Part shown: piece after piece, positions 28,926 to 62,367 of the stretch
How the letters are laid out: each line of letters begins with the position of its first letter
Numbering within the stretch: the stretch's first letter is position 1
Source: Candidatus Omnitrophota bacterium
GTDB lineage: Bacteria > Ratteibacteria > UBA8468 > B48-G9 > DTJG01
Assembly: GCA_023819255.1 (NCBI GenBank)
Contig: JAMWBU010000006.1
Coordinates: 2,902-66,901, forward strand
Direction of reading: 5' to 3'
Length of the DNA stretch: 64,000 nt
The notes under the pieces: generated by a model
What the model was told of the DNA's origin: nothing
Databases searched by the model: none
Seen by the model: the letters and a program-made list of their open reading frames with translations, nothing else
Made by a program: the position numbers and the translations under genes

Positions 28926-28952
28926 AATATACCCCCGTGTATTTTTACTAAT

Positions 28953-30383
28953 TTACCATCTTGCCTGAAAACCCGCAATGAAATCAAATGGTCTGCCTGG
29001 ATAACCAGGCGCTATTTCGTAGTCATTGCCCAGAATATTGTTAAATCTGAAAAACAGTTTCAGATCAGGTGTAACATTGTATGAAATTGCTGTTGAAAAA
29101 ATGGTGTATCCTTTCACTTTTTCACTGTCAAAAATCTGGTTTCCCTCATATATTAATTGAAAATCAGAACTTAACTTTCCTTCAACAAACCCTGCTTTGA
29201 AATAACTGGTGCTTTCAGGAAATCCGGATTTTTTTTTGTTCTGATTAAAGCGGAAGTGACCTGATTCAATATAGAATTTTTCAAATTTCTTTGATAGTGT
29301 AAAACCTGTCATATTTGTAAAATTGTCTTTAAGAACCGAAGGTTCATAAAGGTTATCATTATCTATGTCAAGCCAATGATAGCCCAGTTTTTCATATGAG
29401 ATCTGGCCTTCTATTGAGAAATCAACGCCTGTTATTTTTCCATAAAATCCAGCATAAATGGAATAAATTTCTTCAGGAGGAAGGAAAACATTCTTCATAT
29501 CAAGATGGGGCTGTTCTCCAGCAATCTTCCATAAATCAGGGAAAGAGAAAGTGCTCGAAAACCCTGCTTGAAATTTTGTTCCATCTTTCTCAACCTGAAA
29601 ATTTGCAGAAGGTAAAACCCTGATCTCATCTCCAATATTTTTTATCGTGATTGCTACAGCAAGGTTTTCATTACGATACTGGCCTGATAAATCGACGATT
29701 CTATTCTTTTCATCAGCAAATTCGTTAAATCCCAATTCCGCGTTAAAATCAAATTTTCCAATTTTATTGTTCAAAATAAAAAACACGCCTGTTTGTTCAA
29801 GCTCTCCAAGCGAATTTTTTGTTCCAGCAAATGTGATTCTGTAATCCTGCTGTTTCAAAATTAGTTTTGTGTCAGTTGTTACAGTGTGCTTCTTTTTATA
29901 AGTCAAAAAACCACCTGGAGGAGAAACTTCTTTTATACAGTTCCAGAGATCAAAAGCAAAATCTATATTTTCAGCAAAAGATTTTTGAATATGGGCTTCA
30001 ATGATATTTTTGCCATCGCGGCGTCTGTAGGAGTTGTCATGCAATGCAGAAAGATTCAGGTGCCACCCCGGATAATTTAATAAAATGTCAGATGATATGT
30101 ATCCGAATTTGCCTGCGCATACGGTCAATTCCTTGAAATTTTTGGTGCCAACATCTGCAACTTTTTCATTCTTTGTCGAAGTGGGTTTTTTTAGATATTG
30201 TTCGGGAATTCCGGGGGTATGCGGGAAATTAATCTGAAACTGGTGTGGGTAGAAGAAAACAGGTGTTTTATAAATGTTTCTATCGCTTCCAGTCACAACA
30301 GTTTCAGGGATTTCAATGTTCTGTCCATATATCAGACTTGATGAGATCAAAAAAAACACTGCAAATGTAAAAAGGCATTTCAT
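28953..30383 (-). CDS. outer-membrane beta-barrel protein with N-terminal TonB-box-like motif
   Basis: Signal peptide, ETVVTGSDRNIY right after the cleavage site, alternating amphipathic strands, C-terminal FQARW aromatic end. Only 476 aa, so shorter than classical TonB-dependent transporters. Confidence 0.5.
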   Translation of the reverse strand: MKCLFTFAVFFLISSSLIYGQNIEIPETVVTGSDRNIYKTPVFFYPHQFQINFPHTPGIPEQYLKKPTSTKNEKVADVGTKNFKELTVCAGKFGYISSDILLNYPGWHLNLSALHDNSYRRRDGKNIIEAHIQKSFAENIDFAFDLWNCIKEVSPPGGFLTYKKKHTVTTDTKLILKQQDYRITFAGTKNSLGELEQTGVFFILNNKIGKFDFNAELGFNEFADEKNRIVDLSGQYRNENLAVAITIKNIGDEIRVLPSANFQVEKDGTKFQAGFSSTFSFPDLWKIAGEQPHLDMKNVFLPPEEIYSIYAGFYGKITGVDFSIEGQISYEKLGYHWLDIDNDNLYEPSVLKDNFTNMTGFTLSKKFEKFYIESGHFRFNQNKKKSGFPESTSYFKAGFVEGKLSSDFQLIYEGNQIFDSEKVKGYTIFSTAISYNVTPDLKLFFRFNNILGNDYEIAPGYPGRPFDFIAGFQARW

Positions 30384-35590: not shown

Positions 35591-36355
35591 TTATTCTCCT
35601 GATTTTATAATGTGAAAACCCTGGTCGGTTCTCACTACTTTTTCAAGTACCTGGTCGGGCTTCATTGAAAAAAGAATTTCCTCCAGTTCAGGCATCAATT
35701 GGCCCCGTGAAATCATTCCAAGGTCTCCGCCTTTGTCCTTTGAAGAACTTATTGATTCTTTTTTTGCTATTTCGGAAAAATCCGCTCCGTTTGAAAGCCT
35801 GCTGATAATGTCTCTTGCCTGTTGTTCTGTAGGCACGACTATTTCATAAAGATGAATTCGTTCCGGCACAAGAAAATCTTTAAGATTGTTGTTGTAGTAG
35901 TTTTTTATTTCCTCAGGGGAAATTTGCGCTTTGTTCAATACCTGGTCTGAAAGAAATTCTTTTATCAATAGATCTTTCCTGTAGTTCTCAATCGCTTTCT
36001 TAATATTTTTTCTATAATGCCTTTGGTATTTTTTTGCCTGTTGCGTCAAAAGTTTTTCTCCTATGAAATCTTCAAGAGCCTGCTGGGGAAATTGTTTTAC
36101 ATATTCCTGATAAAATTCGGGATATGTTGAGATTTTTTCTTTTAAGTCCGCCAGCGTAATAATATGGCCATTGACGACCGCAACGGCATTTTTTTTCAGA
36201 TATTGTCTATATGCAGAATATACTGCGATCACAATTATCACCGGTATTCCCAGCATAAGTATGAATTTTTTTCTTTTTTTCCTATCCTTGAAATAACTTC
36301 CTATTCTTACACACAACGTCCTGCACTGATTCTTGACTTTCTCTTTTATTTTCAC
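35591..36355 (-). CDS. parvulin-type peptidyl-prolyl cis-trans isomerase (PpiC/PrsA-like)
   Basis: C-terminal rotamase motif SIS...GGDLGMISRGQLMPELE...GFHIIK. Confidence 0.6.
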   Translation of the reverse strand: MKIKEKVKNQCRTLCVRIGSYFKDRKKRKKFILMLGIPVIIVIAVYSAYRQYLKKNAVAVVNGHIITLADLKEKISTYPEFYQEYVKQFPQQALEDFIGEKLLTQQAKKYQRHYRKNIKKAIENYRKDLLIKEFLSDQVLNKAQISPEEIKNYYNNNLKDFLVPERIHLYEIVVPTEQQARDIISRLSNGADFSEIAKKESISSSKDKGGDLGMISRGQLMPELEEILFSMKPDQVLEKVVRTDQGFHIIKSGE

Positions 36356-38664
36356 AATCGTCTCCTTTCTATAATCTTATTTTTATGGCGGTCATAGATT
36401 ATCCTGTATCTCGTTTCTGCTTTTATTTCTTTGCCTTCTATTATACCATCGTTATTACTATCCTGCACTTTCTGGGATACAACAAGAATCCTGAATACAT
36501 TTGCCCTTACTGTGATAAGATTGATAATTTTAGAAATGACAAGCTCTTTTTCATCTTCTGTGTCAATCCAGCGATTTTCATTATCGTCGAGAGAATTTCT
36601 GCCATACCTGGTAATTACCTGTTTCAGCAATGAGCCGGGTTTACCCACAATATCGGATATATCCCTGAATGGTCTTTCATTTATTATTTGTCTTGCAATG
36701 TCTGTATCCACAAGAGGCAGGCATTGGAGAACAAAGGGTGATGCTGTATTTATATTAATCCTGCCATATACAGGTTTTTCAACTTCCTCTGCGACAGTGA
36801 ACACATCAAGCAATTTTTTATCTTCGCCTTTCCACATATTCAGTGTTTTCCACTGAGTTCCTTTATGAATAAAAGAAAGCTCGGCTGGATTTGAAAACGG
36901 ATTGTTTTTTATTATGAAGGAGGCAGGCCACTGAAAGACCTGAAAGGTCTCAAATTCACCTCCGGAACAGGGGTTGAAACTGAGATTAAATTTTCCTGGA
37001 GTTTCAGGCAGCGAAAACCACTGGTTAACCCTGGGATCGTTTTTCTGTCTTGATAGTTTACCGGGTTTTTCTTTTCCATAATCTAGCTGTTCTATCAAAT
37101 TGCCATTCTGGTTCAATAAATACATATTCCCACTGAATGCGAAATCTATTCCGAAAACTCTGGCAATAATAGAAAACATTTCTTTAAGTATCGGAAAATC
37201 AAAATTCATAAAAAGAATGGGTTCAAACTGGTCGGCATTTGACGGACTTTTTACTGGTATCAGAAATGGAATTACAACTGGTCCGGCTGGAGTAATTTTG
37301 ATAAAAATTTTCCATTTTATGGAGTCTCCGATCAGATAATATGAACGTGGGTTCAATTTTGTGCCATCTGGAATCCTTATTGAATTGAGAGTAAGGGACT
37401 CCCAGAAATTTTTCATATGCTGCATGTCCGGTGTTTTTTCATTGTCGATTTCATCAAGGGTGTCTTCAGATTTTTTGTTAAAATCGTTTATGTCAATTTT
37501 GGGCAGCAGTACCATTCCACCTTTTATAAGCCAGCCACCTATGTCAATTGTTTCATCGTATGGATTAAAAATTTCTATAAAATGCGGTCCAAGTTCTTCA
37601 ATTATCGTAACAGAGCCAATTGTTTTTATGCTTAGCTCAGGAGCTGGTTTTACTTCATTGATATATGGTGTTTTTTCCAGACCGATGAATTGTTCACCTT
37701 CTGCGGTTTTTACAACAGTGGGAATGCTGTCTTTATCGCGATAATCAACTGCGTTTACGGCTATCTGAATGGCTTGGTTCTGTTTATAACCGAGTGATAT
37801 CAAAATTGACGCAATTTGAGAAGCGCTTGCTTTATTTATGTTTGTTCTTAAATAATTTTCCGAATCAATGTTTAAATCATAGCTGTGGCAGGTGATAGAA
37901 TTTTTGATTTTTTTGAAAAAATCCTCCTTCATTCCATAGACCATTTTTATGTCTTCAATCGTAAAAAAAGGTCTGTCATCACCACGTGGTTTATTATGAT
38001 TGAACTCATCTTCTTCATCGATTCCTTCATCTTGTTCATCAATGGTGCCATCGCCATCATTGTCAATCCCATCATTTGAGATAGTTTGGTTATCATTATC
38101 ATCGTCCTGATTTGCTTTACCGGGTTTCAAATTTTCGCCTCTTCTGAATTGCACAATATGTCTGTGAAATTTCGGGAAAAGGCCAATTTCAAAACTTGTC
38201 CAGCCTTCATTGAATGAATGCTGGTTGTTTTTTGAAAGATTTCCTGCGTAATTCAGGTTTAAAGATCCTGATTCGTCTGCCACAAGCACCGCGTATCTTC
38301 CGACAATTTTATTTTTGAAGTTTCTAACATAAAAGAACCTGCTTTCGCAGATGCCGTCTCCATCAATATCCACATCGTCGCCGGCAAATTTCTGGTGCCA
38401 CTGCTGGTCGTATCCGTCGTAATTATCTGTGTCGTTTTTAATTTCCCATATTGCCTGTTCTATTCCTATCTTTGCGGCATGGTCGGAAAAAACCGTTGAA
38501 AACATAAGAAACGAGGATTTTTCCCACTGGCCGAATATGAGTAGAAGTCCCATTGTTATGACAAATAAAAGCAGTATTATCCCGATAGCAAAAATTAACG
38601 CGTCTCCTTTATCTGTCCATCCAGATTTCTTCTTCAAATGCCTTTTCAATATCTTTTCCCTCAA
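36352..38664 (-). CDS. giant GspK/PilX-like minor pseudopilin (770 aa) with acidic Ca-binding-like insert and C-terminal HhH motif
   Basis: Non-ATG (TTG) start. N-terminal KGDALIFAIGIILLL is a prepilin-like hydrophobic helix lacking Glu5. DNDGDGTIDEQDEGIDEEDE acidic loop. ININTASPFVLQCLPLVDTDIARQIINERPF helix-hairpin-helix as in GspK. Confidence 0.5.
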   Translation of the reverse strand: MREKILKRHLKKKSGWTDKGDALIFAIGIILLLFVITMGLLLIFGQWEKSSFLMFSTVFSDHAAKIGIEQAIWEIKNDTDNYDGYDQQWHQKFAGDDVDIDGDGICESRFFYVRNFKNKIVGRYAVLVADESGSLNLNYAGNLSKNNQHSFNEGWTSFEIGLFPKFHRHIVQFRRGENLKPGKANQDDDNDNQTISNDGIDNDGDGTIDEQDEGIDEEDEFNHNKPRGDDRPFFTIEDIKMVYGMKEDFFKKIKNSITCHSYDLNIDSENYLRTNINKASASQIASILISLGYKQNQAIQIAVNAVDYRDKDSIPTVVKTAEGEQFIGLEKTPYINEVKPAPELSIKTIGSVTIIEELGPHFIEIFNPYDETIDIGGWLIKGGMVLLPKIDINDFNKKSEDTLDEIDNEKTPDMQHMKNFWESLTLNSIRIPDGTKLNPRSYYLIGDSIKWKIFIKITPAGPVVIPFLIPVKSPSNADQFEPILFMNFDFPILKEMFSIIARVFGIDFAFSGNMYLLNQNGNLIEQLDYGKEKPGKLSRQKNDPRVNQWFSLPETPGKFNLSFNPCSGGEFETFQVFQWPASFIIKNNPFSNPAELSFIHKGTQWKTLNMWKGEDKKLLDVFTVAEEVEKPVYGRININTASPFVLQCLPLVDTDIARQIINERPFRDISDIVGKPGSLLKQVITRYGRNSLDDNENRWIDTEDEKELVISKIINLITVRANVFRILVVSQKVQDSNNDGIIEGKEIKAETRYRIIYDRHKNKIIERRRL

Positions 38665-39283
38665 ATTTTCTTGTTTTCAAAACAAAAAATACTTTAATCT
38701 TGTCCGGCAATTTAGCACGACCAATTTGATTTTGCGTATTCCAGGATTTTTCCCATGTGTTCCCATCCCAATATAAAAATGAAAACGTTTTTACATTTTC
38801 AACCAGTGGTTGGCTGCCAGAAAACCCGGAATCAAAAGCATAGGTTTTCATTTTTCTGTCAAGCCTTTCAAACGATAATTTTATCTCATCGCCATCAAAA
38901 TATATTCCATACTTTCCAATATCTGAACCACTACCAGGCGCGTAAGGTGCAACATATTTTATTGCTGTTTCTGTTCCAATGAAGTCAATTCTAAAAGGCC
39001 CTTCAATATCCTGAATTATTGCTTCCTTCAGTGAGCGTCTTAAGAAAAAAGTAAAATCTCTTGCCGAAGCTATCATTGTTTTTTCTGCTGCTTGTTTTGT
39101 TGCTCTAAGGGTAATACTGGAAAAAATCATAACTCCTGAAATAAAAACAACAACCATAACAACCATTGTAATGAGGATTTCAACAAGGGAAAAAGCCCTT
39201 TTATCTTTGATGCAGGGCTGTAACAAAATCCTGGGTATACTTTTTCCCTTCGTAAGTTTTTGTAAGTTTAATATGAACCTCAT
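38609..39283 (-). CDS. prepilin-type N-terminal domain protein (GspJ/PilW-like), long leader
   Basis: Strong SD (AAGGAG, spacing 7) before the ATG at 39283. KRAFSLVEIL prepilin motif lies 29 aa in. The track ORF extends to 39448. Start uncertain, with a TTG alternative at 39226. Confidence 0.45.
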   Translation of the reverse strand: MRFILNLQKLTKGKSIPRILLQPCIKDKRAFSLVEILITMVVMVVVFISGVMIFSSITLRATKQAAEKTMIASARDFTFFLRRSLKEAIIQDIEGPFRIDFIGTETAIKYVAPYAPGSGSDIGKYGIYFDGDEIKLSFERLDRKMKTYAFDSGFSGSQPLVENVKTFSFLYWDGNTWEKSWNTQNQIGRAKLPDKIKVFFVLKTRKFEGKDIEKAFEEEIWMDR

Positions 39284-39563
39284 AGAGGTGCTCCTTAATC
39301 TGCTTAAAAGATATATCATAATATAAATTTGAAAATCCAGGCATCTTGCCCTTGATATTTTCAGGAACAGCGATGCCATAATGGCTAAATTCTTCCTGTA
39401 TTTTATCACTAAGAATTTCGGCTGCGATTGCAAAATCCTGAAAATCACTGGCTCTTCTGTAAAGTTTTTCTGTGTTCTGCACGACCATCAAGACGCATGA
39501 GATGCCAAGAATGATAATAATTGTTGCCACAAGGACAGAAATTAAGGAAAATCCTCTATTCAT
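39201..39563 (-). CDS. small pseudopilin (GspI/PilV-like, Ser at +5)
   Basis: MNRGFSLISVLVATIIIIL. 120 aa. Confidence 0.5.
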   Translation of the reverse strand: MNRGFSLISVLVATIIIILGISCVLMVVQNTEKLYRRASDFQDFAIAAEILSDKIQEEFSHYGIAVPENIKGKMPGFSNLYYDISFKQIKEHLYEVHIKLTKTYEGKKYTQDFVTALHQR

Positions 39564-40008
39564 TCTTTTCTATTTTTGTCTTACCGGTGAGATTGTAGAG
39601 AACAATCTTTGCTGTTTTTTTGCTTGATGTGTCCTGAAGAACTAAATAACCTGCCTGCCTTGCAGTGCCCTGCGGTAAAAATTCAGCAGGTGAAAAACCG
39701 TCGGTTTTTTCTTTAATGATGATAAACTGCGGAAGTTTAATTACTTTTCCAACCAGTGTTCCATCAATCCTGTAGATTCCATATGAGTTGTTTCCAAAGA
39801 AAACACGAAAGTTTTGTTTTTCCGCTATTGCGTAGTATCTTGCAGTTTGAAGGGTTTCACAGATGCTTTTGCATGCATTATCAAGGTTGATTCTACTAAT
39901 TGCTTTGTGAGGGAAAAAAACAGAAAAACCAATGAGCAAGCCAATAATCACAACAACAACAAGAATTTCAATAAGGGTGATTCCTTTTTTACCAGTTTCC
40001 GATGTCAT
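39556..40008 (-). CDS. prepilin-type pseudopilin (GspH/FimT-like)
   Basis: MTSETGKKG|ITLIEILVVVVIIGLL, canonical E5. The track ORF extends to 40140 and would overlap the upstream gene by 152 nt. Confidence 0.5.
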   Translation of the reverse strand: MTSETGKKGITLIEILVVVVIIGLLIGFSVFFPHKAISRINLDNACKSICETLQTARYYAIAEKQNFRVFFGNNSYGIYRIDGTLVGKVIKLPQFIIIKEKTDGFSPAEFLPQGTARQAGYLVLQDTSSKKTAKIVLYNLTGKTKIEKNE

Positions 40009-40426
40009 CTTTTGTATTAGTTTTTCTGTCAGGACCATTGGAAAAAATGACAAATGGAACACTGTCTTTTTGTGTTTGTGGATAGATGTAAAAAATCGGG
40101 TTTCCCCAGGTGTCAATAATATTTTTGTTTTCATCGACATCTGCCTGCTTAAATCTCATATATGGACCTTTCCAGTTCTCGTCATCCACTGGTCCCATCA
40201 AAGCTTCAAAAAGAATTGTGCTTGAGCCAGTACTTTCAGGATAATCGCCCATATCTGTTTGATACATAAATAGGGCTGTTTCGATTGAAGCAATTATGCT
40301 TTTTGTTTTTAAAATGGCTGCTTTATTTCGCGCCTTTCTCACAGCTGGCATAGATATAGCGGCGATTGCTGATATTATCACCAGTACAACAAGAATTTCA
40401 ATGAGAGTAAATCCAGTTTTCTTCAT
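39989..40426 (-). CDS. GspG/PulG-like major pseudopilin
   Basis: MKKTGFTLIEILVVLVIISAIAAI and C-terminal FSNGPD...DDIGNW, the GspG-type tail. Confidence 0.65.
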   Translation of the reverse strand: MKKTGFTLIEILVVLVIISAIAAISMPAVRKARNKAAILKTKSIIASIETALFMYQTDMGDYPESTGSSTILFEALMGPVDDENWKGPYMRFKQADVDENKNIIDTWGNPIFYIYPQTQKDSVPFVIFSNGPDRKTNTKDDIGNW

Positions 40427-40529
40427 TTTTTCTTTTCTTTTTTCTGCCCAAAATCCTGTCTGTTCCCTTTATAAAAGGAGTAAATGCGAGGAAAATTAAA
40501 AACTGTAGGACATTTTTTTGCGTTCATCC

Positions 40530-41159
40530 TTAGAATGGGAGTTTGTTCTTAATCCTTGCAAGAATTGTTGTGGTAATGACCGGTCTTGTTTTCAAAGATG
40601 GATCAGTTGTTTTGCCTTTCAATGTAATTTTTACAGCGACGCAGGTATCAGGTAAAACTTCTGAATTTATTTCATGCAATCCTGAGTTTGTTTGTCCGTA
40701 ATAGGTAAATCCACTTCCAGAATCCAGCACTATGGATTTGTTTGCGTCAATCAGTTTCCACAGGCCAGAGTTTCTCGCCGGAGTGCCAGCTGAATTTGAT
40801 TTTGCCTGCCACAATGTTGTGTCTGTGGTTATTTCAGAATTCATTCCAGGTGAAATCAGATAAAACACTGTTTCTCCTTTTGTTCTGTCGTAAAAGGCCA
40901 GTTCATAAAAAGCATTTTGCGGGTCATTTTTTATATTATGCGCAAACTCAAGCCCGATTGTATTCCTGGAACCATAGGAAATTTCTGTTATCATTGAGTT
41001 CAATGTGTTTTGAACCTCATTTTGATATGTAATCAGTTTTCGCAGTCGCGCAGCGCGCGCATAAAGGTAAGCAGACAGCCCAACAATAATCACAAGAAGC
41101 GCAAGCGCAACAAGCAGTTCAAGTAGTGTGAACCCTGATTTAAGTCTGTTTTTTTTCAT
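40530..41159 (-). CDS. prepilin-type N-terminal cleavage/methylation domain protein
   Basis: KSGFTLLELLVALALLVIIV. Confidence 0.6.
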   Translation of the reverse strand: MKKNRLKSGFTLLELLVALALLVIIVGLSAYLYARAARLRKLITYQNEVQNTLNSMITEISYGSRNTIGLEFAHNIKNDPQNAFYELAFYDRTKGETVFYLISPGMNSEITTDTTLWQAKSNSAGTPARNSGLWKLIDANKSIVLDSGSGFTYYGQTNSGLHEINSEVLPDTCVAVKITLKGKTTDPSLKTRPVITTTILARIKNKLPF

Positions 41160-41611
41160 CAGTATATCCCGTTTCTTGTGATATAAACAGGCATTGCAAT
41201 CAATGGGTAATCATCTTTGATTCTTCTTATTTCTATCTTTATTTTTCGTAAAGCCACCTGATCTATTTCGGTATCGCTTGCTTCGCTGCCATCATATTTA
41301 TACCATACGCAACCCATCAGGACTTTGTAATATGGATCTAAACTTGAAACCTGGTATGAATTGTCAAATTCATCGTTTTCTCCCATCTTTTTTGGGAATT
41401 CTGATTGCCTATCAGAACAAACAGGAGGAAAATCGATTGTTTTTACAATCTCAATATGATACTGGGCGATTGCTGAAGCGATAAGTATCTCATTTGATTT
41501 TTTCATAATATTCAGATTCCCCGCAATAATCAATAGACCTGTTCCAATAACAATCGTCAGCAGAAATACTGCCACCACAAGTTCAAGAACGGAAAAACCC
41601 TTTTTTACCAT
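41159..41611 (-). CDS. prepilin-type N-terminal cleavage/methylation domain protein
   Basis: MVKKGFSVLELVVAVFLLTIVIG. Confidence 0.6.
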   Translation of the reverse strand: MVKKGFSVLELVVAVFLLTIVIGTGLLIIAGNLNIMKKSNEILIASAIAQYHIEIVKTIDFPPVCSDRQSEFPKKMGENDEFDNSYQVSSLDPYYKVLMGCVWYKYDGSEASDTEIDQVALRKIKIEIRRIKDDYPLIAMPVYITRNGIY

Positions 41612-43344
41612 TGTATTTTCCAGTTAACTGGAAGATAAATTCTTCTTCCGCCTGTAAATCCTGAATAAATCCGGATTCTATCAATATCAAGCGCGTTTTT
41701 ATCATAGGTAAGGGTTCCATTGTTTAGGTTAACTGTGCCATTTGCAACAAGGCACCCATTTATAAATGTATTTGCATTGTTTAATGTGATATTTCCTGCT
41801 GATGCACCATAAGAATAAACAAGTCCAGGGATTCTCGCATAATAAGAAGTGCTCCCAATATCTATTGTTGCAGAACTGCCTGTTGAATAAGCCACTATTG
41901 TCGCTTTATCACCAAGCCCTGTAATTGGATTTGAAATAAAATCGACGTTTCCGGTTGATGCTATGTGCACCTCTATTGGTTGATTTTGAGATAATAGCAA
42001 AAACGCGTAATTTTGATTGCTTCCAAGCGTAATTGAAGGAGTTGAATTTAGAGTGAATGGGGCTCTTGAAGGTGAATAAAGGACGATAGCAGCAGGTTTT
42101 GCGCTGCTTGAGGCATCAATGGTCAGATTAGGGGCGTTAATTGTTAGTGATGTGTTTGTGATAAGAGCGCCGTTTATTGTAATATTGGAATGATTTATTG
42201 TAAAAGTTCCATCACCGTTGTAATCATAGACAATCAGGTCTGAATTAGAAAATGTTGTGTTTGGATGGATGATCATTGTTCTCTTTCCATCTCCATTAAC
42301 ATCTGCTTCAAAAAGCGCATTCTGTAAAAGGTTAATACTTCCTTTGAAAACAATGTCTCCATCAGCAAGGACAGAATTAACAACATAAACCGTTGATGAT
42401 GTTCCGTCAAAACAAGCACCACCGCTTCTGCCCGAGCTTGCTCTGACATAGATTTTTCTGTTTCCTGGTGGAGTGTAGCTAGTGAATGTAAATGTTTCTG
42501 TTGTTGTTTCATCTGAAGTATAAGAAACACCTGGTGGCAGTGGCGTGTTCCAGGAACCACCATCAATCCTGTATCTTGGTTGACCTTCTTCCCCCTGAAA
42601 CTCAATCCAGCCCGAGCCTGCTGGGTCTGGCGGTCGGGTTTCAAATGGTAGATATGGAACAATTGGCTTTGGCAATGAGATACTTGTTTGTGTCCATGTT
42701 GCATCAGTCCATCCAGCAGGCCATAAAGCTGGTCTGGCTGAATTTGTTGCGATATTTCCTTTTACTTTTGCGTCTGTGTCTGAAACAGTATTAGCATAGA
42801 TCACATGCTTGTTGAACGCTTCAGGAACGCCTTTTGTATCAAGATCCGTAATATCTGCCAGAGGCAAACCAAGATTCATATTCCCATCGCTTAAGGTTCT
42901 TATTCCAGCAGCAATCATCACTTTTCTTCCGCGATATTTTCCAGTTGCAACAAGTGTATCAGGATAGGTGCCATCGTTGATGAAAAGTTGAATTGTTACT
43001 CCATCGTTTGCAGATGCCTGCGTCAATCCAAGTTCAGCGGCTTTCAGGGTATATGTATAGATATCACCATTATTTGGAACTCCATCGGCCAGAGTCAGGC
43101 ATTCTCCATCTGGTCTGAATCCATAATAGTGTCCTGGATCATGATACCTGTAGTTCAATTTGTATAAGGCGTCAGCAATACCAAGATGAGCAAGATTAAA
43201 GGCAATATTTCGGTCCCTCAAATATGTGGACCTTCTATATGCAGTTGTGCTTGTCAGGACAACAGAAAGAATGATTGCTGAAAAAAGTAAAATAAGTATG
43301 ATGACGATTACGAGCGCAACTCCGTTTCTGTTTTTTTTGTTCAT
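41605..43344 (-). CDS. 579-aa PilX/GspK-like pilus-tip protein with beta-helix-like repeat body
   Basis: MNKKNRNGVALVIVIILILL (no Glu5). Body rich in short N/T/G-containing repeats (ITINGALITNTSLTINAPNLTIDASS), suggesting a parallel beta-helix adhesin. Confidence 0.45.
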   Translation of the reverse strand: MNKKNRNGVALVIVIILILLFSAIILSVVLTSTTAYRRSTYLRDRNIAFNLAHLGIADALYKLNYRYHDPGHYYGFRPDGECLTLADGVPNNGDIYTYTLKAAELGLTQASANDGVTIQLFINDGTYPDTLVATGKYRGRKVMIAAGIRTLSDGNMNLGLPLADITDLDTKGVPEAFNKHVIYANTVSDTDAKVKGNIATNSARPALWPAGWTDATWTQTSISLPKPIVPYLPFETRPPDPAGSGWIEFQGEEGQPRYRIDGGSWNTPLPPGVSYTSDETTTETFTFTSYTPPGNRKIYVRASSGRSGGACFDGTSSTVYVVNSVLADGDIVFKGSINLLQNALFEADVNGDGKRTMIIHPNTTFSNSDLIVYDYNGDGTFTINHSNITINGALITNTSLTINAPNLTIDASSSAKPAAIVLYSPSRAPFTLNSTPSITLGSNQNYAFLLLSQNQPIEVHIASTGNVDFISNPITGLGDKATIVAYSTGSSATIDIGSTSYYARIPGLVYSYGASAGNITLNNANTFINGCLVANGTVNLNNGTLTYDKNALDIDRIRIYSGFTGGRRIYLPVNWKIQW

Positions 43345-43934
43345 CTGAATACATAAACAATGTCATCTGACTTTACCCGCGCTTGCTTATCCCCGGCATT
43401 TGTTTGTATCTTTCCATCCGGACCTGCTGAATAGATTATCATTACCTTATCAGATTGATTATAGGCAACAAGGTATGGATGACCCCAGGGGTCTAAAGGT
43501 GTTCCATACAAGTCTGTTGCAACAAGAGACCAGCTTGTTTCTTCATCAATCGCAGGCAGGCTTCCTCTGCTTGCGCTGAAAACTGAACCTTCCTGAAAAA
43601 CCTGATAGGGTCCATCCCATGGATGACCACTAGTAAGTGGGCTTGTTGTGCTGGTATCATCGTCAGTGCCATTAAAATAAACATAGGTCTGGGTCTTGTC
43701 ATCATACTTTAACGGAAGCGTAGCGTCTGAAAGATCGCATATCCTCACATAGTAACCAATATCGTTTTTCGCGGTAATTATAGCGCTTGCAATTGCAGCC
43801 ATTTCATTTTTTGCTCTGTCTATTGCTGCTTTTGCTCTTGCTTTTCTTAATGCAGGCAGCAACATCGCAGCAAGCATTGCAATAATAACCATTACCACAA
43901 GAAGTTCAATTACAGTAAAACCTTTTCTTTTCAT
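43341..43934 (-). CDS. GspG-like pseudopilin
   Basis: Start set at MKRKGFTVIELLVVMVIIAML, so the track ORF's extra 25 codons are dropped. C-terminal IIYSAGPDGKIQTN. Confidence 0.6.
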   Translation of the reverse strand: MKRKGFTVIELLVVMVIIAMLAAMLLPALRKARAKAAIDRAKNEMAAIASAIITAKNDIGYYVRICDLSDATLPLKYDDKTQTYVYFNGTDDDTSTTSPLTSGHPWDGPYQVFQEGSVFSASRGSLPAIDEETSWSLVATDLYGTPLDPWGHPYLVAYNQSDKVMIIYSAGPDGKIQTNAGDKQARVKSDDIVYVFR

Positions 43935-43935
43935 T

Positions 43936-44598
43936 TTATTGCCCCCATTCAGATTCAACACCATCCGCTTTAATATCAATGTTCCGGCCATCTTGGGTGC
44001 AGGCAACATTCACACCACTTGCTGGTCCGTTGGAACCTTTATAATAAACAACCTTTGCCTTAAGAACCCACATTGCAGAGCCATCAAGATACTGGACATT
44101 AATTCCATCTTTATGATTTCCGTATTTGAGTCTAGGATCCACGAAAATACCATTGTCGCTTATTACTGGAACAGGATTTGGGCAATTGTTTCCTGTCGTT
44201 AGTCCAAAAACAAAAGAGTAAGAATCGTTCCAGTTATTTTCATTAATGGTGTCCGGCGGTCTTACACCTCTTGATATTGTCGATGGACACCAGAATGTAT
44301 GCGGGGTTTTAATGTAATTAGGGTAGATTCCATCATATATGCTATAGGCAACTATCTCAGGGGGATCAGGGGGATAAGGGGGATTATATTTATAGTAAGC
44401 TACTGGATACCTTTCAAAAAAATCTTCAGAATACATTTCAAAAGCAGCCATAATCTGCTTCAGGTTATTGATGCAGGTTGTTCTTCTTGCTCTTTCCCTT
44501 GCTCCAACAAGAGCCGGCAAGAGCATCGCAGCCAGTATTCCTATTATTGCAATGACTATGAGCACTTCGATAAGCGTAAATCCATCTTTTTTTCGCAT
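43936..44598 (-). CDS. prepilin N-terminal domain protein of the H-X9-DG (DUF1559) class
   Basis: [30 protein letters not shown]...[10 protein letters not shown] and C-terminal [12 protein letters not shown]. Confidence 0.65.
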
Positions 44599-45911
44599 TA
44601 TTCACCTCCTCCGCCGCCTCCTGAGCCGCCGGACAAACTCAGGGCTATTTTTATAAGTGGCATAAACAGCGAAATGACTATAAATCCGACAACAACTCCG
44701 AGACAAACAATCAATATCGGTTCAAGCATAGAAGTCATCGCAGCCACAGCAGCGTCAACTTCTGCTTCGTATGCGTCAGCGACTTTTTCAAGCATAGCAT
44801 CCATAGCACCTGTTTCTTCTCCAACCGCAATCATATTTGTAACCATCGGCGGAAAAGCATGTGTTCTCATCATAATGCCTGAGATGCCCTCTCCTTCTCG
44901 GACACGATTGCGAATTTCGTTGATGGCATTGGCAATGACTTCATTGCCAACAGTGTCCCTGACAATTTGAAGTGACTGAAGTATTGGCACGCCGCTGGTT
45001 ATAAGGGTGGCAAATGTTCTTGCAAAGCGCGCTACAATGGTTTTTGAAATCACAGGTCCAAATATAAACAACTTCAGTTTTATCTTGTCGATCAGATATT
45101 TGGTAAATTTTATTTTGTTTGCCACCTTGTATAGAATCGCAAGGGCAAAAATGAAAGCGATTATAAGATAAGACCTTTCAGCCATAAGCTTTGACATTTT
45201 GATAAGAAGCACTGTTGTGGGTGGTAGATCCCCGACTTCCATATCTTCAAAAATTTTTGTGAAAGTCGGCACGATTTTAACCATGATGAATGTTAAAATG
45301 CCAATCATAACAACGATCACAACAGAAGGATATGCCATCGCTGATTTTATTTTTCCTTTCAGTTTTGCCTCTTTTTCCATAAACTCTGCAAGACGACTCA
45401 GCACAGATTCAAGGGCTCCACCTGCTTCACCGGCCTTTACCATAGCAACATAGATTCTGGGGAAACTTGAAGGAAACTTGGCAAGCGCTTCAGAAAAAAG
45501 CGCTCCCTGTTCAATTTCACTCGCGACCCTGTTAAGAACCTTTGCCGCTCCACCTTTTCTTTGCTGTTCGAGCACTTTCAAGGCTCTTAACAATGGAAGA
45601 CCTGAACCAATGAGAGTGGCAAGCTGCCGGGTGACAATCATTAGTTCTTTTGGTTTTATTCTGGATCCGCCAAGAAATGGCAGATTTATGTTTATTCCGC
45701 CAGCGGCTTTCTTTTTTGCAGGGGCTTTTTGCGCCTGTTTTGCTGCTGGCGCGGATTTTGGCGCGGCAGCGGTTTTCCCGGAACTTATGTTTGTGACATA
45801 ATATCCCATTGTTTTCAGTTTTCCTATGGCGTCCTGAGAATTTGCTGCTTCTATCGCGCCGCTGACTGTTTTGCCTGTTCCGTCCAGAGCCGTGTAATTG
45901 AAATTTGCCAT
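44598..45911 (-). CDS. pilC: type II secretion / type IV pilus platform protein (GspF/PilC family)
   Basis: Two T2SSF repeats, 3-4 TM helices, and an unusual C-terminal [11 protein letters not shown] tail. Confidence 0.8.
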
Positions 45912-45978
45912 CTTTTTTTGTCCCTTTTCTCTATTATAATACCCTGCAATTTCTGTTCAGTAAAGCCCGCATTTTTTA

Positions 45979-47703
45979 TTAACCATAACCATGGACTTCC
46001 TTCATAACTTCTTCCACTGATGTTATCCCTAAATTTATTTTTTCAATGCCGTCTTCAACAAGTGTTTTCATCTTGCATTCGTTAACTGCTATCTCGCGAA
46101 TTTCTCCCAGCGGCCTGTTTTCGAGCACAGCGCGCCATAACTGCTCGCTGGGAACAAGAATTTCAAATATGCCTGTTCTTCCTTTATATCCGCCCCTGCA
46201 GAAAGGGCATCCCACAGGTTTGTAAAATTTCATCTCCTGGACTTTTTCATCGCTGAGCCCGAGTTCAATGATTTCCTGTTTTGTGGGTCTGTATTCTTCC
46301 TTGCATCTTGGACACAGAACCCGTACAAGGCGCTGCGCGATGATACCTTCGATTGTTGACGCGAGAAGGAAAGGTTCTACCTTCATATCCACCAATCTCA
46401 TAATCGTTGTTGGCGCGTCATTTGTGTGCAGGGTACTTAAAACAAGATGTCCGGTGAGCGATGATTGTATCGCCATCTGCGCTGTGTCAAAATCGCGGAC
46501 CTCTCCAACCAGAATAATGTCAGGGTCCTGACGCAGTATACTTCTTATGCACGCAGCGAAAGTGAGGCCAATGCTTTCCTTTACTGGAACCTGCACGGCT
46601 CCTTCCAGCATATATTCAACAGGATCCTCTGTGGTAATAAGTTTTACTTCCGGAGTGTTTAGTTTTCTCAAAAGCGCATAAAGTGTTGTGGTTTTTCCGC
46701 AACCGGTTGGTCCTGTTGCAAGGATAATGCCATGCGGTTTGTGTATGAGCTTTTCAACCTTATCCATATCAGAGGCCAGAAGTCCAAGATTTTCCATATC
46801 AAAAATAGTTTTTCCTCTATCAAGCACACGAATTGCCAGACATTCGCCAAATACTGTTGGAACTGTGTTTACACGAAGGTCTACCGGTCTTCCCATAACA
46901 GATAGCTCTATTCTTCCATCCTGGGGCAGTCGTCTTTCCGCTATGTCCATTGAAGCCATAATTTTAAATCTACAGAAAAGGGCAAAGGCAAGACCTTTTG
47001 GCGGATGAACCATGTCATAAAGCACACCATCAACCCTGTATCTGACTCTGAAATCGTTTTCAAAAGGTTCAAGATGTACGTCAGAAGCATTGTCTCTAAC
47101 TGTTTGAAGCAAGATTAGATCAAACAGTTTCACAACCGGTGGAAGAGATGCGATTTCTTCAAGACTTGTAATTGTTGCATATTCTCCGCTGGCTGACGCT
47201 ATTGTCTCAAGTTCTTCCATTTCACTCATATCCTGAGATATCCACTTTATAAGGTCGTCTATCGTTTCAAGTTCTGACCCATAGTAAACATTAATGTTTT
47301 CCTTGATGTCATCTTCGTCTGCCAGAACCATTTTTATTTTGTATCCAAGGATGAATGAAATATCGTCCTGTATGTTCAAACTCAAAGTATCGCCAACAGC
47401 AAGTGTAAGTATATTTTTTTCCAGTTTTACCGGAATAACATTGTATGTTTTTGCGAGAGCAGAAGGAAAGACATTGACTGCATTCTTGTCGATGACAGTA
47501 TTTTTAAGGTCTATCATTTCTATACCGGCCTGGACGCTCAAAATTTTTTTAAGTTCCTTTTCGTCAATAATTCCTCTTTCAACAAGAATTCTTCCAAGAA
47601 ATTTGCCTGTTTTTACCTGTTCCTGCAGGGCCGTTTCAATCTGTTGTTCTGTAACAAGCCCGGCTTCGATCAGCATATCTCCAAGTCGTTTTCTTTCTGC
47701 CAT
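45979..47703 (-). CDS. pilB: GspE/PilB-family assembly ATPase (copy 1) with T2SSE_N domain
   Basis: Walker A GPTGCGKTTT, Asp box, His box and a tetracysteine CPRC...CPFC motif. Confidence 0.8.
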   Translation of the reverse strand: MAERKRLGDMLIEAGLVTEQQIETALQEQVKTGKFLGRILVERGIIDEKELKKILSVQAGIEMIDLKNTVIDKNAVNVFPSALAKTYNVIPVKLEKNILTLAVGDTLSLNIQDDISFILGYKIKMVLADEDDIKENINVYYGSELETIDDLIKWISQDMSEMEELETIASASGEYATITSLEEIASLPPVVKLFDLILLQTVRDNASDVHLEPFENDFRVRYRVDGVLYDMVHPPKGLAFALFCRFKIMASMDIAERRLPQDGRIELSVMGRPVDLRVNTVPTVFGECLAIRVLDRGKTIFDMENLGLLASDMDKVEKLIHKPHGIILATGPTGCGKTTTLYALLRKLNTPEVKLITTEDPVEYMLEGAVQVPVKESIGLTFAACIRSILRQDPDIILVGEVRDFDTAQMAIQSSLTGHLVLSTLHTNDAPTTIMRLVDMKVEPFLLASTIEGIIAQRLVRVLCPRCKEEYRPTKQEIIELGLSDEKVQEMKFYKPVGCPFCRGGYKGRTGIFEILVPSEQLWRAVLENRPLGEIREIAVNECKMKTLVEDGIEKINLGITSVEEVMKEVHGYG

Positions 47704-47704
47704 A

Positions 47705-48850
47705 TTATCCCTTTGTTTCTCCAGTGCTTTCCAGTTCTATTGTCTCGCCATACTCTTTAGACGCAAGAGACTGATCAATGACTCCTTCTGCGGCAAGCTG
47801 ATGTTTCACCTGCTCGGGATACTGACTGTAAATCATAACATCTTCAAAGGAAATTTTGCCTTCTTTGAAGAGTCTCATCAAAAATGCGTCAAGCGTCACC
47901 ATACCCATTTTCATTCCTGTTTGAATATCCGAAATAATCCTGTATGTTTTGCGCTCGCGAATCAGGTTCTGTATTGACGGGGTGGCTATCATAATTTCGA
48001 AAGCCGCAACCCTTCCAGGTTTGTCCTTGCGATGAAGAAGAATCTGAGATATTATTGCCAGTATTGAAACTGAAAGCATAACCCTTATCTGTTCTTGCTG
48101 TTCCACAGGGAACACATTGACAATTCGGTCTATGGTGCGGGTCGCTCCTGTTGTATGCAGGGTGCCGAAAACGATATGACCTGTTTCAGCCGCAGTGATG
48201 GCGGCTTCGATGGTTTCAAGGTCTCTCATTTCACCGACCAGAAACACATCCGGATCCTGTCTCAATCCTCTTCTCAACGCTTCAGCGAATGATGGCACAT
48301 CAACTCCGAGTTCCCTCTGTGTTATGATGGATCTTTTGTGCGGATGATAGTATTCAATAGGGTCTTCAATTGTGATGATGTGATGGTCCATATGTGTATT
48401 CATATAGTCAATCATTGAAGCGAGAGTGGTGGTTTTTCCACTGCCAGTTGGTCCAGTGACAAGTATTAATCCGCGGGGTCTTGTAAGCAAATATTTCATT
48501 GTTTTTTCTTCAAGTCCAAGCTGCTCAAAGGTTAGAAACCTATATGGAATCAAACGAAGCGCCATTGCGATGTGACCCCTTTCTTTGAATACAGAAACAC
48601 GGAATCTTGCAATATCTTTGAACGCAAAGCCAAAGTCAGTGCCGCCAACTCTTTGAAGTTCTTCCTGGTGCTCTCTGGAAGTAATTGCTTTCATATAATT
48701 GACTGTATCTTCGGGTGTGAGAGGTTCTGAGTCCATTTTGACAAGCCCGCCATGTCCTCTCATCATTGGCGGCAACCCCACATTTATATGAAGATCCGCA
48801 GCGTTTTCACGCACTATCATTTCAAGAAGTTCTTCAATTCGCTTTGGCAT
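47705..48850 (-). CDS. pilT: twitching-motility retraction ATPase PilT
   Basis: LHINVGLPPMMR, GPTGSGKTTT, and SIQNLIRERK resembling the PilT AIRNLIRE signature. Confidence 0.85.
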   Translation of the reverse strand: MPKRIEELLEMIVRENAADLHINVGLPPMMRGHGGLVKMDSEPLTPEDTVNYMKAITSREHQEELQRVGGTDFGFAFKDIARFRVSVFKERGHIAMALRLIPYRFLTFEQLGLEEKTMKYLLTRPRGLILVTGPTGSGKTTTLASMIDYMNTHMDHHIITIEDPIEYYHPHKRSIITQRELGVDVPSFAEALRRGLRQDPDVFLVGEMRDLETIEAAITAAETGHIVFGTLHTTGATRTIDRIVNVFPVEQQEQIRVMLSVSILAIISQILLHRKDKPGRVAAFEIMIATPSIQNLIRERKTYRIISDIQTGMKMGMVTLDAFLMRLFKEGKISFEDVMIYSQYPEQVKHQLAAEGVIDQSLASKEYGETIELESTGETKG

Positions 48851-50568
48851 TATTCCTCCTCTCCGGTGACATCTATTACCTCCTGCATTGTTGTTAGCCC
48901 GAGTTTAACCTTTCTGAAGCCGTCATCTTTCATGGTTGACATTCCAAGCCTGCGCGCTTCTTTTTTCAGTTCTTCTGCTGTGGCTCTTCTCATTGTGAGT
49001 TCTCTCAGCGTGTCGTTCATAATAAATATTTCAAAAATAGCCAATCTATCAGTAAAACCTGTAAAGTTGCATTCAGGACATCCTCTTGGCTCATAGATTG
49101 TGATTTTTTCTCCTTCCTGTATTTTCAGTTTTTGTTTCATAGATTCATCCGGCTCAATGGGCTGTTTGCAGTACTTGCAAAGAACCCTCACAAGCCTTTG
49201 CGCCATAACGCCCTGCACTGACGAAGCAACAAGAAAAGGTGGTATGCCAAGATCAATTAATCTTGTGATGGCGCTTGGCGCGTCGTTTGTGTGAAGGGTG
49301 CTGAAAACAAGATGTCCGGTAAGCGCGGCTCGCAACGCGATATCCGCTGTTTCAAAATCGCGAATTTCTCCGACAAGTATTACATCCGGGGATTGTCTTA
49401 AAAAAGCCCTAAGCACAGAGGCAAAGGTAAGCCCTATTTCAGATCTAACAGGTGTCTGGTTTATTCCCTGTATCTGGTATTCAACAGGCTCTTCAACTGT
49501 CATCAATTTTCTGTCAATGGTATTCAATCTTTTCAGTGATGCGTAGAGTGTGGTTGTTTTTCCTGAACCAGTCGGCCCTGTCACAAGAAGAATTCCACCC
49601 GAATATTTCAGGAGGTTTTCCCATATCTTTCGGTCCTGTTCCATAAATCCGAGTCCTTCAAGATCCTTGAGGGCTTTTGTTTTATCAAGGATTCTCAAAA
49701 CAACGCTTTCTCCATAAATACCTGGAAGCGTTGAAACGCGAAAATCTACCGGTCTTCCACCTATATCAAGCATAATGCGGCCGTCCTGGGGAAGCCTTTT
49801 TTCCGCAAGGTCCATTTTTGACATAAGTTTCACGCGCGCAATGACCGCTCTTTCAACTCTTTTGGGTGGGCTGACTACTTCGTAAAGGACTCCGTCAATC
49901 CTGAATCTTACCCTGAATTTTTTTTCCATGGGCTCAAGGTGAATATCGCTTGCTCTTCTTCTTAAGGCTTCAACAAAAATCAAATTAACAATTTTTACGA
50001 CAGGAGCCTGAAGGGCAAGAGCTTCTTCGTCTTCATCTGTTGTAATTTCCTCATCTTCAAGAGTTTCAATCGTGTCGGCGCTTCCAACTTCTTGAAGCAT
50101 GGCGGATAGGTCCTCAATATCCTGCTGTTCAAAATATTTAGCTATCAGCTGGTCTATTTCATTTGGGAAGGTTACCATAATTTCTATCTCATTGGGCACA
50201 TTGAGTACCTTTTTAAAATAGTCGCTTGCTATAATGTTAATAGGGTCATCTGTTACCAGAACAAGTTTTTGATCTTCACGAATTTCCCAGGGTATTATCC
50301 TGTGTTTTTTAGCAAATGATGGAGATATAAGATTTATTACTTCTGCAGGAATTTCTCTGAGTGGAAGGTTTTGCTGCACAATTCCAAGTTGAAAAAAAAG
50401 CGTTGCCGGGATATCTCCAAATGGCAACAGTCCCATATTCTGAAATACTTCTTTAAGTGGCCTGTCTGTTGCTTCTTGTTCCTGTAGCGCTTTTTCAATC
50501 GCCGCACGGTCCCAGAGACCTATGTTCTGGATAATCGTTGTAATTTCTTTTTTCGTCGGCATACACAA
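48850..50568 (-). CDS. GspE/PilB-family assembly ATPase (copy 2) with N-terminal T2SSE_N/MshEN-like domain
   Basis: GPTGSGKTTT, and CKYC...CPEC tetracysteine. First gene of the cluster. Confidence 0.8.
   Translation of the reverse strand: MCMPTKKEITTIIQNIGLWDRAAIEKALQEQEATDRPLKEVFQNMGLLPFGDIPATLFFQLGIVQQNLPLREIPAEVINLISPSFAKKHRIIPWEIREDQKLVLVTDDPINIIASDYFKKVLNVPNEIEIMVTFPNEIDQLIAKYFEQQDIEDLSAMLQEVGSADTIETLEDEEITTDEDEEALALQAPVVKIVNLIFVEALRRRASDIHLEPMEKKFRVRFRIDGVLYEVVSPPKRVERAVIARVKLMSKMDLAEKRLPQDGRIMLDIGGRPVDFRVSTLPGIYGESVVLRILDKTKALKDLEGLGFMEQDRKIWENLLKYSGGILLVTGPTGSGKTTTLYASLKRLNTIDRKLMTVEEPVEYQIQGINQTPVRSEIGLTFASVLRAFLRQSPDVILVGEIRDFETADIALRAALTGHLVFSTLHTNDAPSAITRLIDLGIPPFLVASSVQGVMAQRLVRVLCKYCKQPIEPDESMKQKLKIQEGEKITIYEPRGCPECNFTGFTDRLAIFEIFIMNDTLRELTMRRATAEELKKEARRLGMSTMKDDGFRKVKLGLTTMQEVIDVTGEEE

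Positions 50569-60533: not shown

Positions 60534-62367
<1,834 letters not shown>

Follow-up and report, generated by a model that had tools for sequence, protein, structure and literature searches.

A consolidated type IV filament locus of Ratteibacteria with paired assembly ATPases and two candidate tip modules

The core minor pilins of type IVa pili (T4aP), FimU, PilV, PilW and PilX, are homologous to GspH, GspI, GspJ and GspK of type II secretion systems (T2SS), which to our knowledge lack PilT. Myxococcus xanthus combines PilB, PilT and PilC with three minor-pilin/PilY1 clusters, a precedent for alternative priming complexes; Pseudomonas has the set FimU-PilVWXY1E, and the modular pilins of Streptococcus sanguinis are pilins with grafted functional domains. 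T4aP systems are typically encoded at several loci, their prepilin peptidase is often shared between systems, and a "generic" class has been defined that includes chimeras of gspE and pilB profiles (Denise et al., PMC6668835). In Omnitrophota, a T2SS-like locus carries gspD, gspE, gspF, rcpC, a gene for a Rotamase_2 peptidyl-prolyl isomerase (PPIase), class III signal-peptide genes and an adjacent giant gene (bioRxiv 10.1101/2023.11.21.568195). Here we describe a cluster of 14 genes in a stretch of 64,000 nucleotides ("the window"; contig JAMWBU010000006.1 of assembly GCA_023819255.1, positions 2,902 to 66,901), deposited as Candidatus Omnitrophota bacterium and placed by GTDB in Ratteibacteria. 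We consider it fairly likely that the cluster belongs to a retractile type IV filament machine that is T4aP-like, spread over several loci and equipped with two alternative tip modules, with partner genes elsewhere.

With T4aP the cluster shares a PilB-type extension ATPase, here in two copies, the retraction ATPase PilT, the platform protein PilC, fibre-priming minor pilins homologous to GspH/I/J/K and more than one tip set, as well as the spreading of genes over several loci (PMC6668835). It differs from T4aP in that two apparently ancient PilB paralogues flank PilT, that its pilins are of the GspG and DUF1559 types rather than the PilA type, and that PilY1 is replaced by a GspK-fold cap bearing a lamin-tail domain (LTD) and by a pilin-anchored beta-solenoid protein; PilMNOPQ and PilD were not located in Ratteibacteria loci. 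T2SS pseudopilus operons resemble it in the gene order of one minimal relative, in the XcpX/GspK fold predicted for the product of the last gene (G14) and in the full-length T2SSG match of one pilin (G10). Unlike them, however, the cluster has PilT, a duplicated ATPase and an oversized GspK but no local GspC, L, M, D or O, and all its T2SS equivalog scores are sub-threshold. The Omnitrophota T2SS-like locus comes from a sister phylum that is likewise related to the Planctomycetes-Verrucomicrobia-Chlamydiae (PVC) group, and has in common with our cluster gspE and gspF homologues, many class III genes, a Rotamase_2 PPIase and LTD-bearing GspK homologues. In contrast, the gspD secretins, rcpC, PilM/N fusion and giant genes found there do not occur near the Ratteibacteria cluster, and Ratteibacteria have been described as lacking giant proteins (West-Roberts et al., bioRxiv 10.1101/2023.11.21.568195).

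Layout and conservation of the cluster

The 14 open reading frames (ORFs) all lie on the minus strand, from position 50568 to 36352, between argS (50822-52441) and a gene for a SurA-like PPIase (Table 1). Their products are two assembly ATPases of the PilB type, PilT, PilC and ten pilin-like proteins, of which two are large. Most neighbouring ORFs overlap or abut (spacing -8 to +1 nt). Three gaps are larger: PilC is preceded by 67 nt, G10 by 103 nt, and 253 nt separate argS from G1. For four genes the likely true start differs from the ORF call (G1, ATG 50562; G6, ATG 43934; G11, ATG 40008; G13, TTG 39226). A scan for promoters and terminators gave counts equal to those of shuffled sequence, the sole suggestive site being at 50599-50571, upstream of G1.

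Domains were assigned by Pfam and NCBIfam profile scans with the cut-offs of the models. An earlier note on this DNA, made from the sequence alone, had proposed such searches, and they bear out its gene content and domain calls, including two distinct assembly ATPases with tetracysteine motifs (two CxxC pairs in each PilB), PilT and one PilC. The ORF listing confirms the 14 co-directional, mostly overlapping genes that it placed between argS and surA-pdxA-ksgA, and its count of about ten prepilin-like genes, with a 579-aa and a 770-aa protein among them, agrees with the ten class III-like N-termini that we found.

The same note suggested that the cluster could be a machine of undescribed composition. 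It is not a one-off: a synteny screen of related metagenome-assembled genomes (MAGs) shows that the locus is conserved in the phylum. When one genome per GTDB species was scanned with PilC as seed, ~32 loci of the window type were obtained, with PilC identities of 57-92% and several of them labelled Ratteibacteria; the next nearest PilC loci were from Verrucomicrobia (45-47%). The full order, argS, PilB1, PilT, PilB2, PilC, G5 to G14, SurA, SurA_N, pdxA and ksgA, recurs in close relatives (our loci L002, L003, L007, L009, L010, L077, L080, L082, L083 and L085) and in the more distant L024/L086. The genes form four modules: a motor with two pilins; the beta-solenoid pilin with two small pilins; GspG; and GspH-I-J-K fused to surA-pdxA-ksgA.

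PilB1-PilT-PilB2-PilC-G5, mostly followed by G6, is found in nearly every Ratteibacteria locus, and in ~25 of the ~32 species loci this motor with G5 (and G6) stands alone among housekeeping genes, usually after a ParA-like gene. GspH-I-J-K(LTD)-SurA-SurA_N-pdxA-ksgA forms a separate island in L065, L069, L070 and L071. A minimal form, L066, reads argS, PilB1, PilT, PilB2, PilC, GspG, H, I, J, K, SurA and lacks G5-G9. Four modules that most relatives keep scattered are thus unusually consolidated in the window. Our literature search on Ratteibacteria and Omnitrophota pili found no description of the window locus, only the related Omnitrophota T2SS-like locus.

Homologues of G7 and G14 carry NCBI names such as "Candidatus Omnitrophica", "Candidatus Ratteibacteria" and "TA06 ADurb.Bin131"; the exact G7 protein was found only on a 6.6-kb contig of GCA_023818575.1. 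GTDB often assigns to Ratteibacteria genomes that bear the label "Omnitrophica" in public databases (West-Roberts et al., bioRxiv 10.1101/2023.11.21.568195). Outer-membrane functions encoded in the window comprise SurA, TonB/ExbB, a BamD/YbgF-like tetratricopeptide repeat (TPR) protein, KdsA/D/C and LptA/C-like proteins. Because of these genes for 3-deoxy-D-manno-octulosonic acid (KDO) and Lpt functions, SurA, TonB and BamD/YbgF-like proteins, we take the host to be a diderm with an outer membrane bearing lipopolysaccharide (LPS).

Table 1. Positions in the window of the cluster genes and of two other features, with the matches on which the assignments rest
Feature	Position	Strand	Evidence
G1/PilB1, assembly ATPase paralogue 1, degenerate N-terminal MshEN motif	48850..50562 (ORF to 50568)	-	Pfam T2SSE 450.7 bits, MshEN
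G2/PilT, retraction ATPase	47705..48850	-	NCBIfam TIGR01420 PilT/PilU family, 450.6 bits vs cut-off 319.1
G3/PilB2, assembly ATPase paralogue 2, tandem MshEN c-di-GMP-binding motif (predicted)	45979..47703	-	T2SSE 427.8 bits, MshEN 63.2 bits
G4/PilC (GspF), inner-membrane platform	44598..45911	-	Pfam T2SSF x2, 213.7 bits
G5, DUF1559/H-X9-DG prepilin, candidate pilin	43936..44598	-	N_methyl 39.2 bits, SBP_bac_10 (DUF1559) 35.3 bits, site G↓FTLIE
G6, GspG-like pilin 2 (long form)	43341..43934	-	N_methyl and C-terminal part of T2SSG
G7, 579-aa modular pilin, PilX/GspK-type N-terminus, beta-solenoid adhesin-like domain	41605..43344	-	weak PilX_N match; structure prediction
G8, small pilin, 150 aa, G7 partner	41159..41611	-	site G↓FSVLE, weak N_methyl match
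G9, pilin, 209 aa, third trio member	40530..41159	-	N_methyl 28.6 bits, site G↓FTLLE
G10, GspG-type pilin, 145 aa, candidate major subunit of GspG-K set	39989..40426	-	Pfam T2SSG full length 53.2 bits, N_methyl
G11, GspH/ComGD-like minor pilin	39556..40008	-	N_methyl; NCBIfam ComGD 37.6 and GspH 34.6 bits, below cut-offs
G12, GspI/PilV-like minor pilin, 120 aa	39201..39563	-	weak PilV TIGR02523, E 4e-4; position between H-like and J-like genes
G13, GspJ-like minor pilin	38609..39226	-	Pfam T2SSJ 24.5 bits (cut-off 28); weak NCBIfam gspJ
G14, 770-aa GspK-fold tip pilin (predicted), inserted lamin-tail Ig domain, Asp-rich stretch, HhH motifs	36352..38664	-	T2SSK, HHH_3, weak LTD
SurA-like periplasmic PPIase (Rotamase_2)	35591..36355	-	Pfam Rotamase, Rotamase_2, SurA_N_3
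KdsA, KdsD (SIS+CBS), KdsC-like HAD, LptA/LptC-like protein	60546-63402		indicate LPS synthesis

The motor and its paired assembly ATPases

PilB1 and PilB2 are 41% identical, and both are intact, with Walker A and B motifs, Asp box, His box and two CxxC pairs. On the NCBIfam equivalog models PilB1 leans slightly towards GspE (605.7 bits, cut-off 630.25; PilB, 578.1 bits, cut-off 675.65) and PilB2 towards PilB (592 bits, cut-off 675.65, vs 573.6 bits for GspE), with every one of these scores below its cut-off. Compared with solved structures in the PDB, PilB1 matches Geobacter PilB best (473 bits; Vibrio EpsE ~425) and PilB2 also matches PilB best (482 bits; EpsE 386), the closest solved ATPases to both paralogues being those of Geobacter and Myxococcus PilB. 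PilT, which has the AIRNLIRE-like motif SIQNLIRE at residue 292, has its gene flanked by those of the two assembly ATPases in 31 of 32 Ratteibacteria loci spanning this part of the motor; in the remaining one, L028, a greedy ORF call did not report PilT.

In a simple neighbour-joining tree, which has neither support values nor curated references and is therefore indicative, PilB1 and PilB2 each pair with one of the tandem ATPases of Luteolibacter/Akkermansiaceae MAGs and of lineage L039/L041. Because each PilB clade contains members of all these groups, the duplication would predate the split between Ratteibacteria, Verrucomicrobia and L039/L041, and on this tree the two paralogues are an old, PVC-wide duplication shared with Verrucomicrobia. 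The duplicated assembly ATPase of the earlier note is thus real and intact and, as far as the tree indicates, ancient.

The paralogues differ at their N-termini. The motif model for cyclic di-GMP (c-di-GMP) binding, NF053729, scores above its cut-off in PilB2 only (64.9 bits vs 38). PilB2 carries the 24-residue motif in tandem, as RLGDMLIEAGLVTEQQIETALQEQ, a 5-residue spacer and FLGRILVERGIIDEKELKKILSVQ. With a regular expression for the motif we found 37 core motifs in 32 PilB2 orthologues and none in 27 PilB1 orthologues. Judged from these motifs, PilB2 is probably gated by c-di-GMP through its MshEN motif and PilB1 is not, and filament extension would be gated in part through PilB2. A diguanylate cyclase with Cache sensor and GGDEF domain is encoded 30 kb away (window 15071-16663, minus strand) and is a possible source of c-di-GMP for PilB2. 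The Walker A motif of PilB2 has Cys instead of Ser (GPTGCGKT).

In the stand-alone motor loci L013, L016, L019, L032 and L033 a ParA/MinD-like ATPase gene (~256-270 aa) precedes PilB1 (at about 4.2-5.4 kb of each locus), and a conserved ORF of ~70 aa also lies upstream of PilB1 in at least two of them (L013, L032). The window has argS before PilB1 and lacks both genes, which could form a pair with a role in positioning or regulation.

The platform protein G4 carries the two T2SSF domains of a PilC; on the NCBIfam equivalogs it scores 389.2 bits for GspF (cut-off 424) and 372 bits for PilC, both below the cut-offs. It has a low-complexity insert rich in Ala, Lys and Pro (residues ~45-70) and a poly-Gly C-terminal tail.

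Pilins and the two candidate tip modules

Eight of the ten proteins with class III-like N-termini have canonical G↓F(T/S)xxE cleavage sites. The candidates for the major subunit are GspG-like or DUF1559-like and not PilA-like, while the H/I/J/K-like minor pilins score weakly on their models, K being confirmed by its fold. G6 and G10 are full-length paralogues (hhalign probability 99.9%, 136 columns); all other pairs of pilins are alike in the N-terminal helix only. This applies also to G8 and G9 compared with G12 and G13, which are at most possible paralogues. G10 scores 83 bits on the NCBIfam GspG model (cut-off 88.85), and its orthologue directly follows PilC in the minimal relative L066.

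G5 stands immediately after PilC in the Ratteibacteria loci that reach past PilC, except in L024/L086, where it was not found, and in the distant L035, where it is not present. Its linkage with G6 holds across the phylum. One Ratteibacteria MAG has six DUF1559/H-X9-DG prepilin paralogues downstream of PilC (L032, 11335-19158), which echoes the expansion of this family in Planctomycetes and Verrucomicrobia. The Verru_Chthon pilin cassette of four proteins, A to D (TIGR02596-02600), was considered as a model for the pilins and rejected, with only weak matches of G6, G10 and G11 to protein D (20-31 bits vs a cut-off of 70).

The large protein G7 travels with G8 and G9. G8 comes next after G7 in every locus that reaches past G7, bar L096, and is found also beside distant G7 homologues; G9 co-occurs with both in nearly all loci reaching that far. 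Even the distant G7 homologues (26-35% identity) occur as a G7-G8-G9 trio, with L096 as the one exception. Where the trio stands alone it sits between arginine-biosynthesis-like, riboflavin-like or uvrA genes, as judged by length and N-terminal sequence. The predicted structure of G7 (pLDDT 82.9) comprises a 64-residue N-terminal helix without Glu5, a small pilin-like sheet and a long beta-solenoid. A Foldseek search with G7 gave no significant match, and the protein forms a narrow family of its own. In contrast to known modular tip pilins, it is accompanied by two dedicated small pilins, and Thermus thermophilus ComZ (PDB 6qvi) is not its best structural match: ComZ ranked 31st, by a generic beta-solenoid likeness without sequence similarity.

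Two stretches of G7 stand out by their conservation. An invariant G-x-P-E-A-F-N-K-H (residues 172-180) lies in a low-confidence loop that joins the pilin-like head to the solenoid, and the protein ends in an unstructured but conserved tail, GFxGGRRIYLPxNWKxxW (residues 553-579). PilY1 C-termini add a beta-strand to a partner pilin; by analogy, the G7 tail may do the same. In L097, L099 and L103 one or two ORF pairs (~70-80 aa, HicB/HicA-like N-termini) lie between the G7 and G8 homologues.

The second set, G11 to G14, has the order of GspH, I, J and K. The G11 orthologue in L066 matches Pfam GspH, the N-terminus of G12 reads G↓FSLIS, and the G13 orthologues give weak T2SSJ matches. G14 is predicted to adopt the GspK/XcpX fold of T2SS, including C-terminal strands of its own, to which a lamin-tail immunoglobulin (Ig) domain is added, so that the model provides a cap pseudopilin of the GspK type. 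A GspK with its own C-terminal strands is the arrangement of T2SS (PMC12918778). Because of its extra domains G14 is two to three times the normal size of GspK. Distant homologues were found in Aerophobetes, with a single upstream ORF amid housekeeping genes, and in Planctomycetota, as an orphan gene.

G14 overlaps the gene for the SurA-like PPIase by 4 nt, and the latter is probably in the same transcription unit as the cluster. The linkage GspK-PPIase-SurA_N-pdxA(-ksgA) was present in every Ratteibacteria locus examined (including L002, L003, L065, L066 and L069-L071), whether or not the motor lies beside it. This PPIase could be a periplasmic chaperone dedicated to the tip complex.

G14 also has helix-hairpin-helix (HhH) motifs, and a DNA-uptake (competence) pilus, in which a G14 tip would bind DNA through ComEA-like HhH elements, would be compatible with a T4aP-like machine. 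The HHH_3 match is above its cut-off (35 bits vs 27), the G14 family profile matches ComEA chains and the HhH repeats of EEPD1 in the PDB, and PilT-dependent retraction would fit. But the stretch that matches HHH_3 is the one that matches T2SSK, so the HhH elements are probably part of the GspK fold itself; the NCBIfam ComEA score is below its cut-off, the window has no comEC, dprA or comEA, and the likeness of G7 to ComZ is the generic one described above. We therefore think a competence function improbable.

That there are two cap-type proteins without Glu5, G7 and G14, each with its own small pilins, suggests two alternative priming complexes. In the T4aP-like machine that we favour, the locus would encode the cytoplasmic motor, the inner-membrane platform, the filament subunits and two priming or tip modules. 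The prepilins G5, G6 and G8-G13 would be cleaved by a prepilin peptidase encoded elsewhere, after which a complex of minor pilins would prime assembly on PilC. This complex could be either the GspH-I-J-K-like G11-G14, capped by the GspK-fold protein with its lamin-tail Ig domain on display, or the G7-G8-G9 trio, capped by the beta-solenoid adhesin-like pilin. PilB hexamers would then polymerise pilins of the GspG or DUF1559 type, either of which could be the major subunit and be served by either ATPase, and PilT would retract the fibre.

Partner genes and competing readings

Pfam scans of nearly all gene-like ORFs of at least 150 aa (short ORFs and ORFs inside longer genes being left out), together with tblastn, found no secretin, Peptidase_A24, PilM/N/O or GspL/M in the 64-kb window. 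This agrees with the earlier note. GspC and GspD were found neither in the window nor in any related locus, and no A24 peptidase was found in the window or in any Pfam-annotated neighbourhood of related loci.

The note had read these absences as the sign of an undescribed composition, a conclusion that does not hold up against the dispersal of the modules in relatives, the cleavage sites without a local peptidase and the linkage of G14 homologues in Omnitrophota. Because it has eight canonical cleavage sites but no local A24 peptidase, the cluster would not be self-sufficient and partners would be encoded elsewhere; and because the modules are scattered in most relatives, a secretin, PilM/N/O-type proteins and the peptidase are to be expected at other loci. 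In the Omnitrophota loci L067 and L072 the LTD-bearing GspK homologue is followed by genes for an Ig-like protein, a MerR protein and a fusion of PilM_2 with PilN; after these come a PilO-like gene with weak matches to Amuc_1100 and T2SSM_b, a small ORF and two secretin genes. Most likely, other parts of the genome encode the missing outer-membrane and alignment components; absence from 64 kb is no evidence of absence from the genome.

The same absences could mean that the machine is self-contained, a periplasmic or novel filament architecture that works without secretin, alignment complex or dedicated peptidase; no such genes occur in the window, nor do they adjoin the motor, the tip or the trio in any examined locus of the Ratteibacteria type. 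This is highly unlikely, since the class III sites require an A24 peptidase, relatives have the modules at separate genomic sites, a fibre on the surface would have to pass the outer membrane, G14 homologues of Omnitrophota are linked to PilMN and secretins, and the absence was scored in flanking DNA only. We give as little credence to a machine in which two diverged ATPases, one of them c-di-GMP-gated, and PilT act on one PilC to build two filaments without a conventional secretin or PilMNO/GspLM. The assignment that would go with it, a GspG fibre capped by the lamin-tail GspK and a DUF1559/GspG-like fibre capped by the beta-solenoid pilin, is equally doubtful.

Several observations weigh against a T4aP-like machine. 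There is no PilY1-type adhesin. No secretin, PilM/N/O or PilD was retrieved from any Ratteibacteria genome by searches covering the window and the flanking DNA of the loci. When 72 loci (~1.16 Mb) and the window were searched by tblastn with secretin, PilMN and PilO-like proteins of Omnitrophota, neither the window nor any of the ~36 Ratteibacteria loci gave a match; secretin and PilM matches were obtained in non-Ratteibacteria loci only, so the test itself works. When two Omnitrophota secretins from L067 were used for a profile search, the best 120 of 2362 matches were apparently all from Omnitrophota, about one-third of these 120 carrying an Omnitrophota or Omnitrophica name. The pilins and the platform score better on T2SS models (GspG, GspF) than on T4aP models of NCBIfam, the minimal relative L066 has the T2SS-like order E-F-G-H-I-J-K, and the ATPase tree is of the indicative kind described above.

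Some of these points speak for a secretion machine of the T2SS kind, or for a hybrid with two purposes. In such a hybrid, folded proteins would be pushed through a secretin by a short GspG-K pseudopilus that PilB1 drives, and PilB2 and PilT would run a separate retractile G5/G6 pilus tipped by G7, with PilC shared between them. The order E-(T)-E-F-G-H-I-J-K in L066 would fit, as would the best NCBIfam models of the ATPases (GspE for PilB1, PilB for PilB2), of G4 (GspF) and of G10 (GspG/T2SSG over its full length), and the GspK/XcpX fold predicted for G14, whose own C-terminal strands are a T2SS arrangement (PMC12918778). The locus also has two caps, two GspG paralogues and two ATPases, and related Omnitrophota loci have been called T2SS-like in the literature.

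We nevertheless regard a secretion machine or hybrid, the chief competitor of our reading, as rather unlikely. A retraction ATPase is kept in the motor block of 31 of 32 Ratteibacteria loci, GspC, GspL, GspM and GspD were not found in the window or in related loci, every T2SS equivalog score is below its cut-off, both ATPases score higher on solved PilB than on GspE, and in the hybrid a single platform gene would have to serve two filament types. The earlier note had called the mix of GspH-K-like pseudopilins with PilT unusual; it is less so than it appeared, given that the core minor pilins of T4aP are themselves GspH/I/J/K homologues and that both ATPases are nearer to PilB. Overall, a retractile T4aP-like machine remains the reading that we favour.

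Elsewhere the window encodes a P-type ATPase, FtsK, RodZ, MiaB, NusA and IF2 (Pfam scans). A polysaccharide or O-antigen-type cluster (73-13224) comprises a DegT aminotransferase, six or seven glycosyltransferases including a GT10 fucosyltransferase-like one, a Wzx-type flippase, an unannotated 520-aa membrane-protein candidate and an asparagine synthase. An operon-like set on the minus strand (27179-32026) encodes a 548-aa TPR protein with YbgF and BamD-like matches, ExbB, an ExbD-sized ORF, TonB and a 476-aa protein whose only match is a weak one to the C-terminal barrel of TonB-dependent receptors; in close relatives, too, the gene for the 548-aa protein is found downstream of ksgA. The Omnitrophota locus L067 includes a 1610-aa ribonucleotide reductase gene (858-5690) with two intein-splicing segments that have LAGLIDADG endonuclease domains (Pfam).

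The cluster is real and intact, is conserved across the phylum and represents a variant of a known machine, within known type IV filament biology, a picture that it would challenge only if the secretin and alignment genes were truly missing genome-wide. With its fully consolidated locus, the window can serve as a reference for the type IV filaments of this uncultured phylum related to PVC, a system built from four movable modules. It brings together three experimentally unstudied features: a PilB paralogue pair that appears to be PVC-wide, with a c-di-GMP motif in only one member; a GspK cap with a lamin-tail Ig domain, always linked to a SurA-type chaperone gene; and pilin-anchored beta-solenoid proteins that form a new, narrow family and travel with two small pilins. 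These features should be of use in annotating PVC and Omnitrophota genomes and in thinking about the swapping of tip adhesins.

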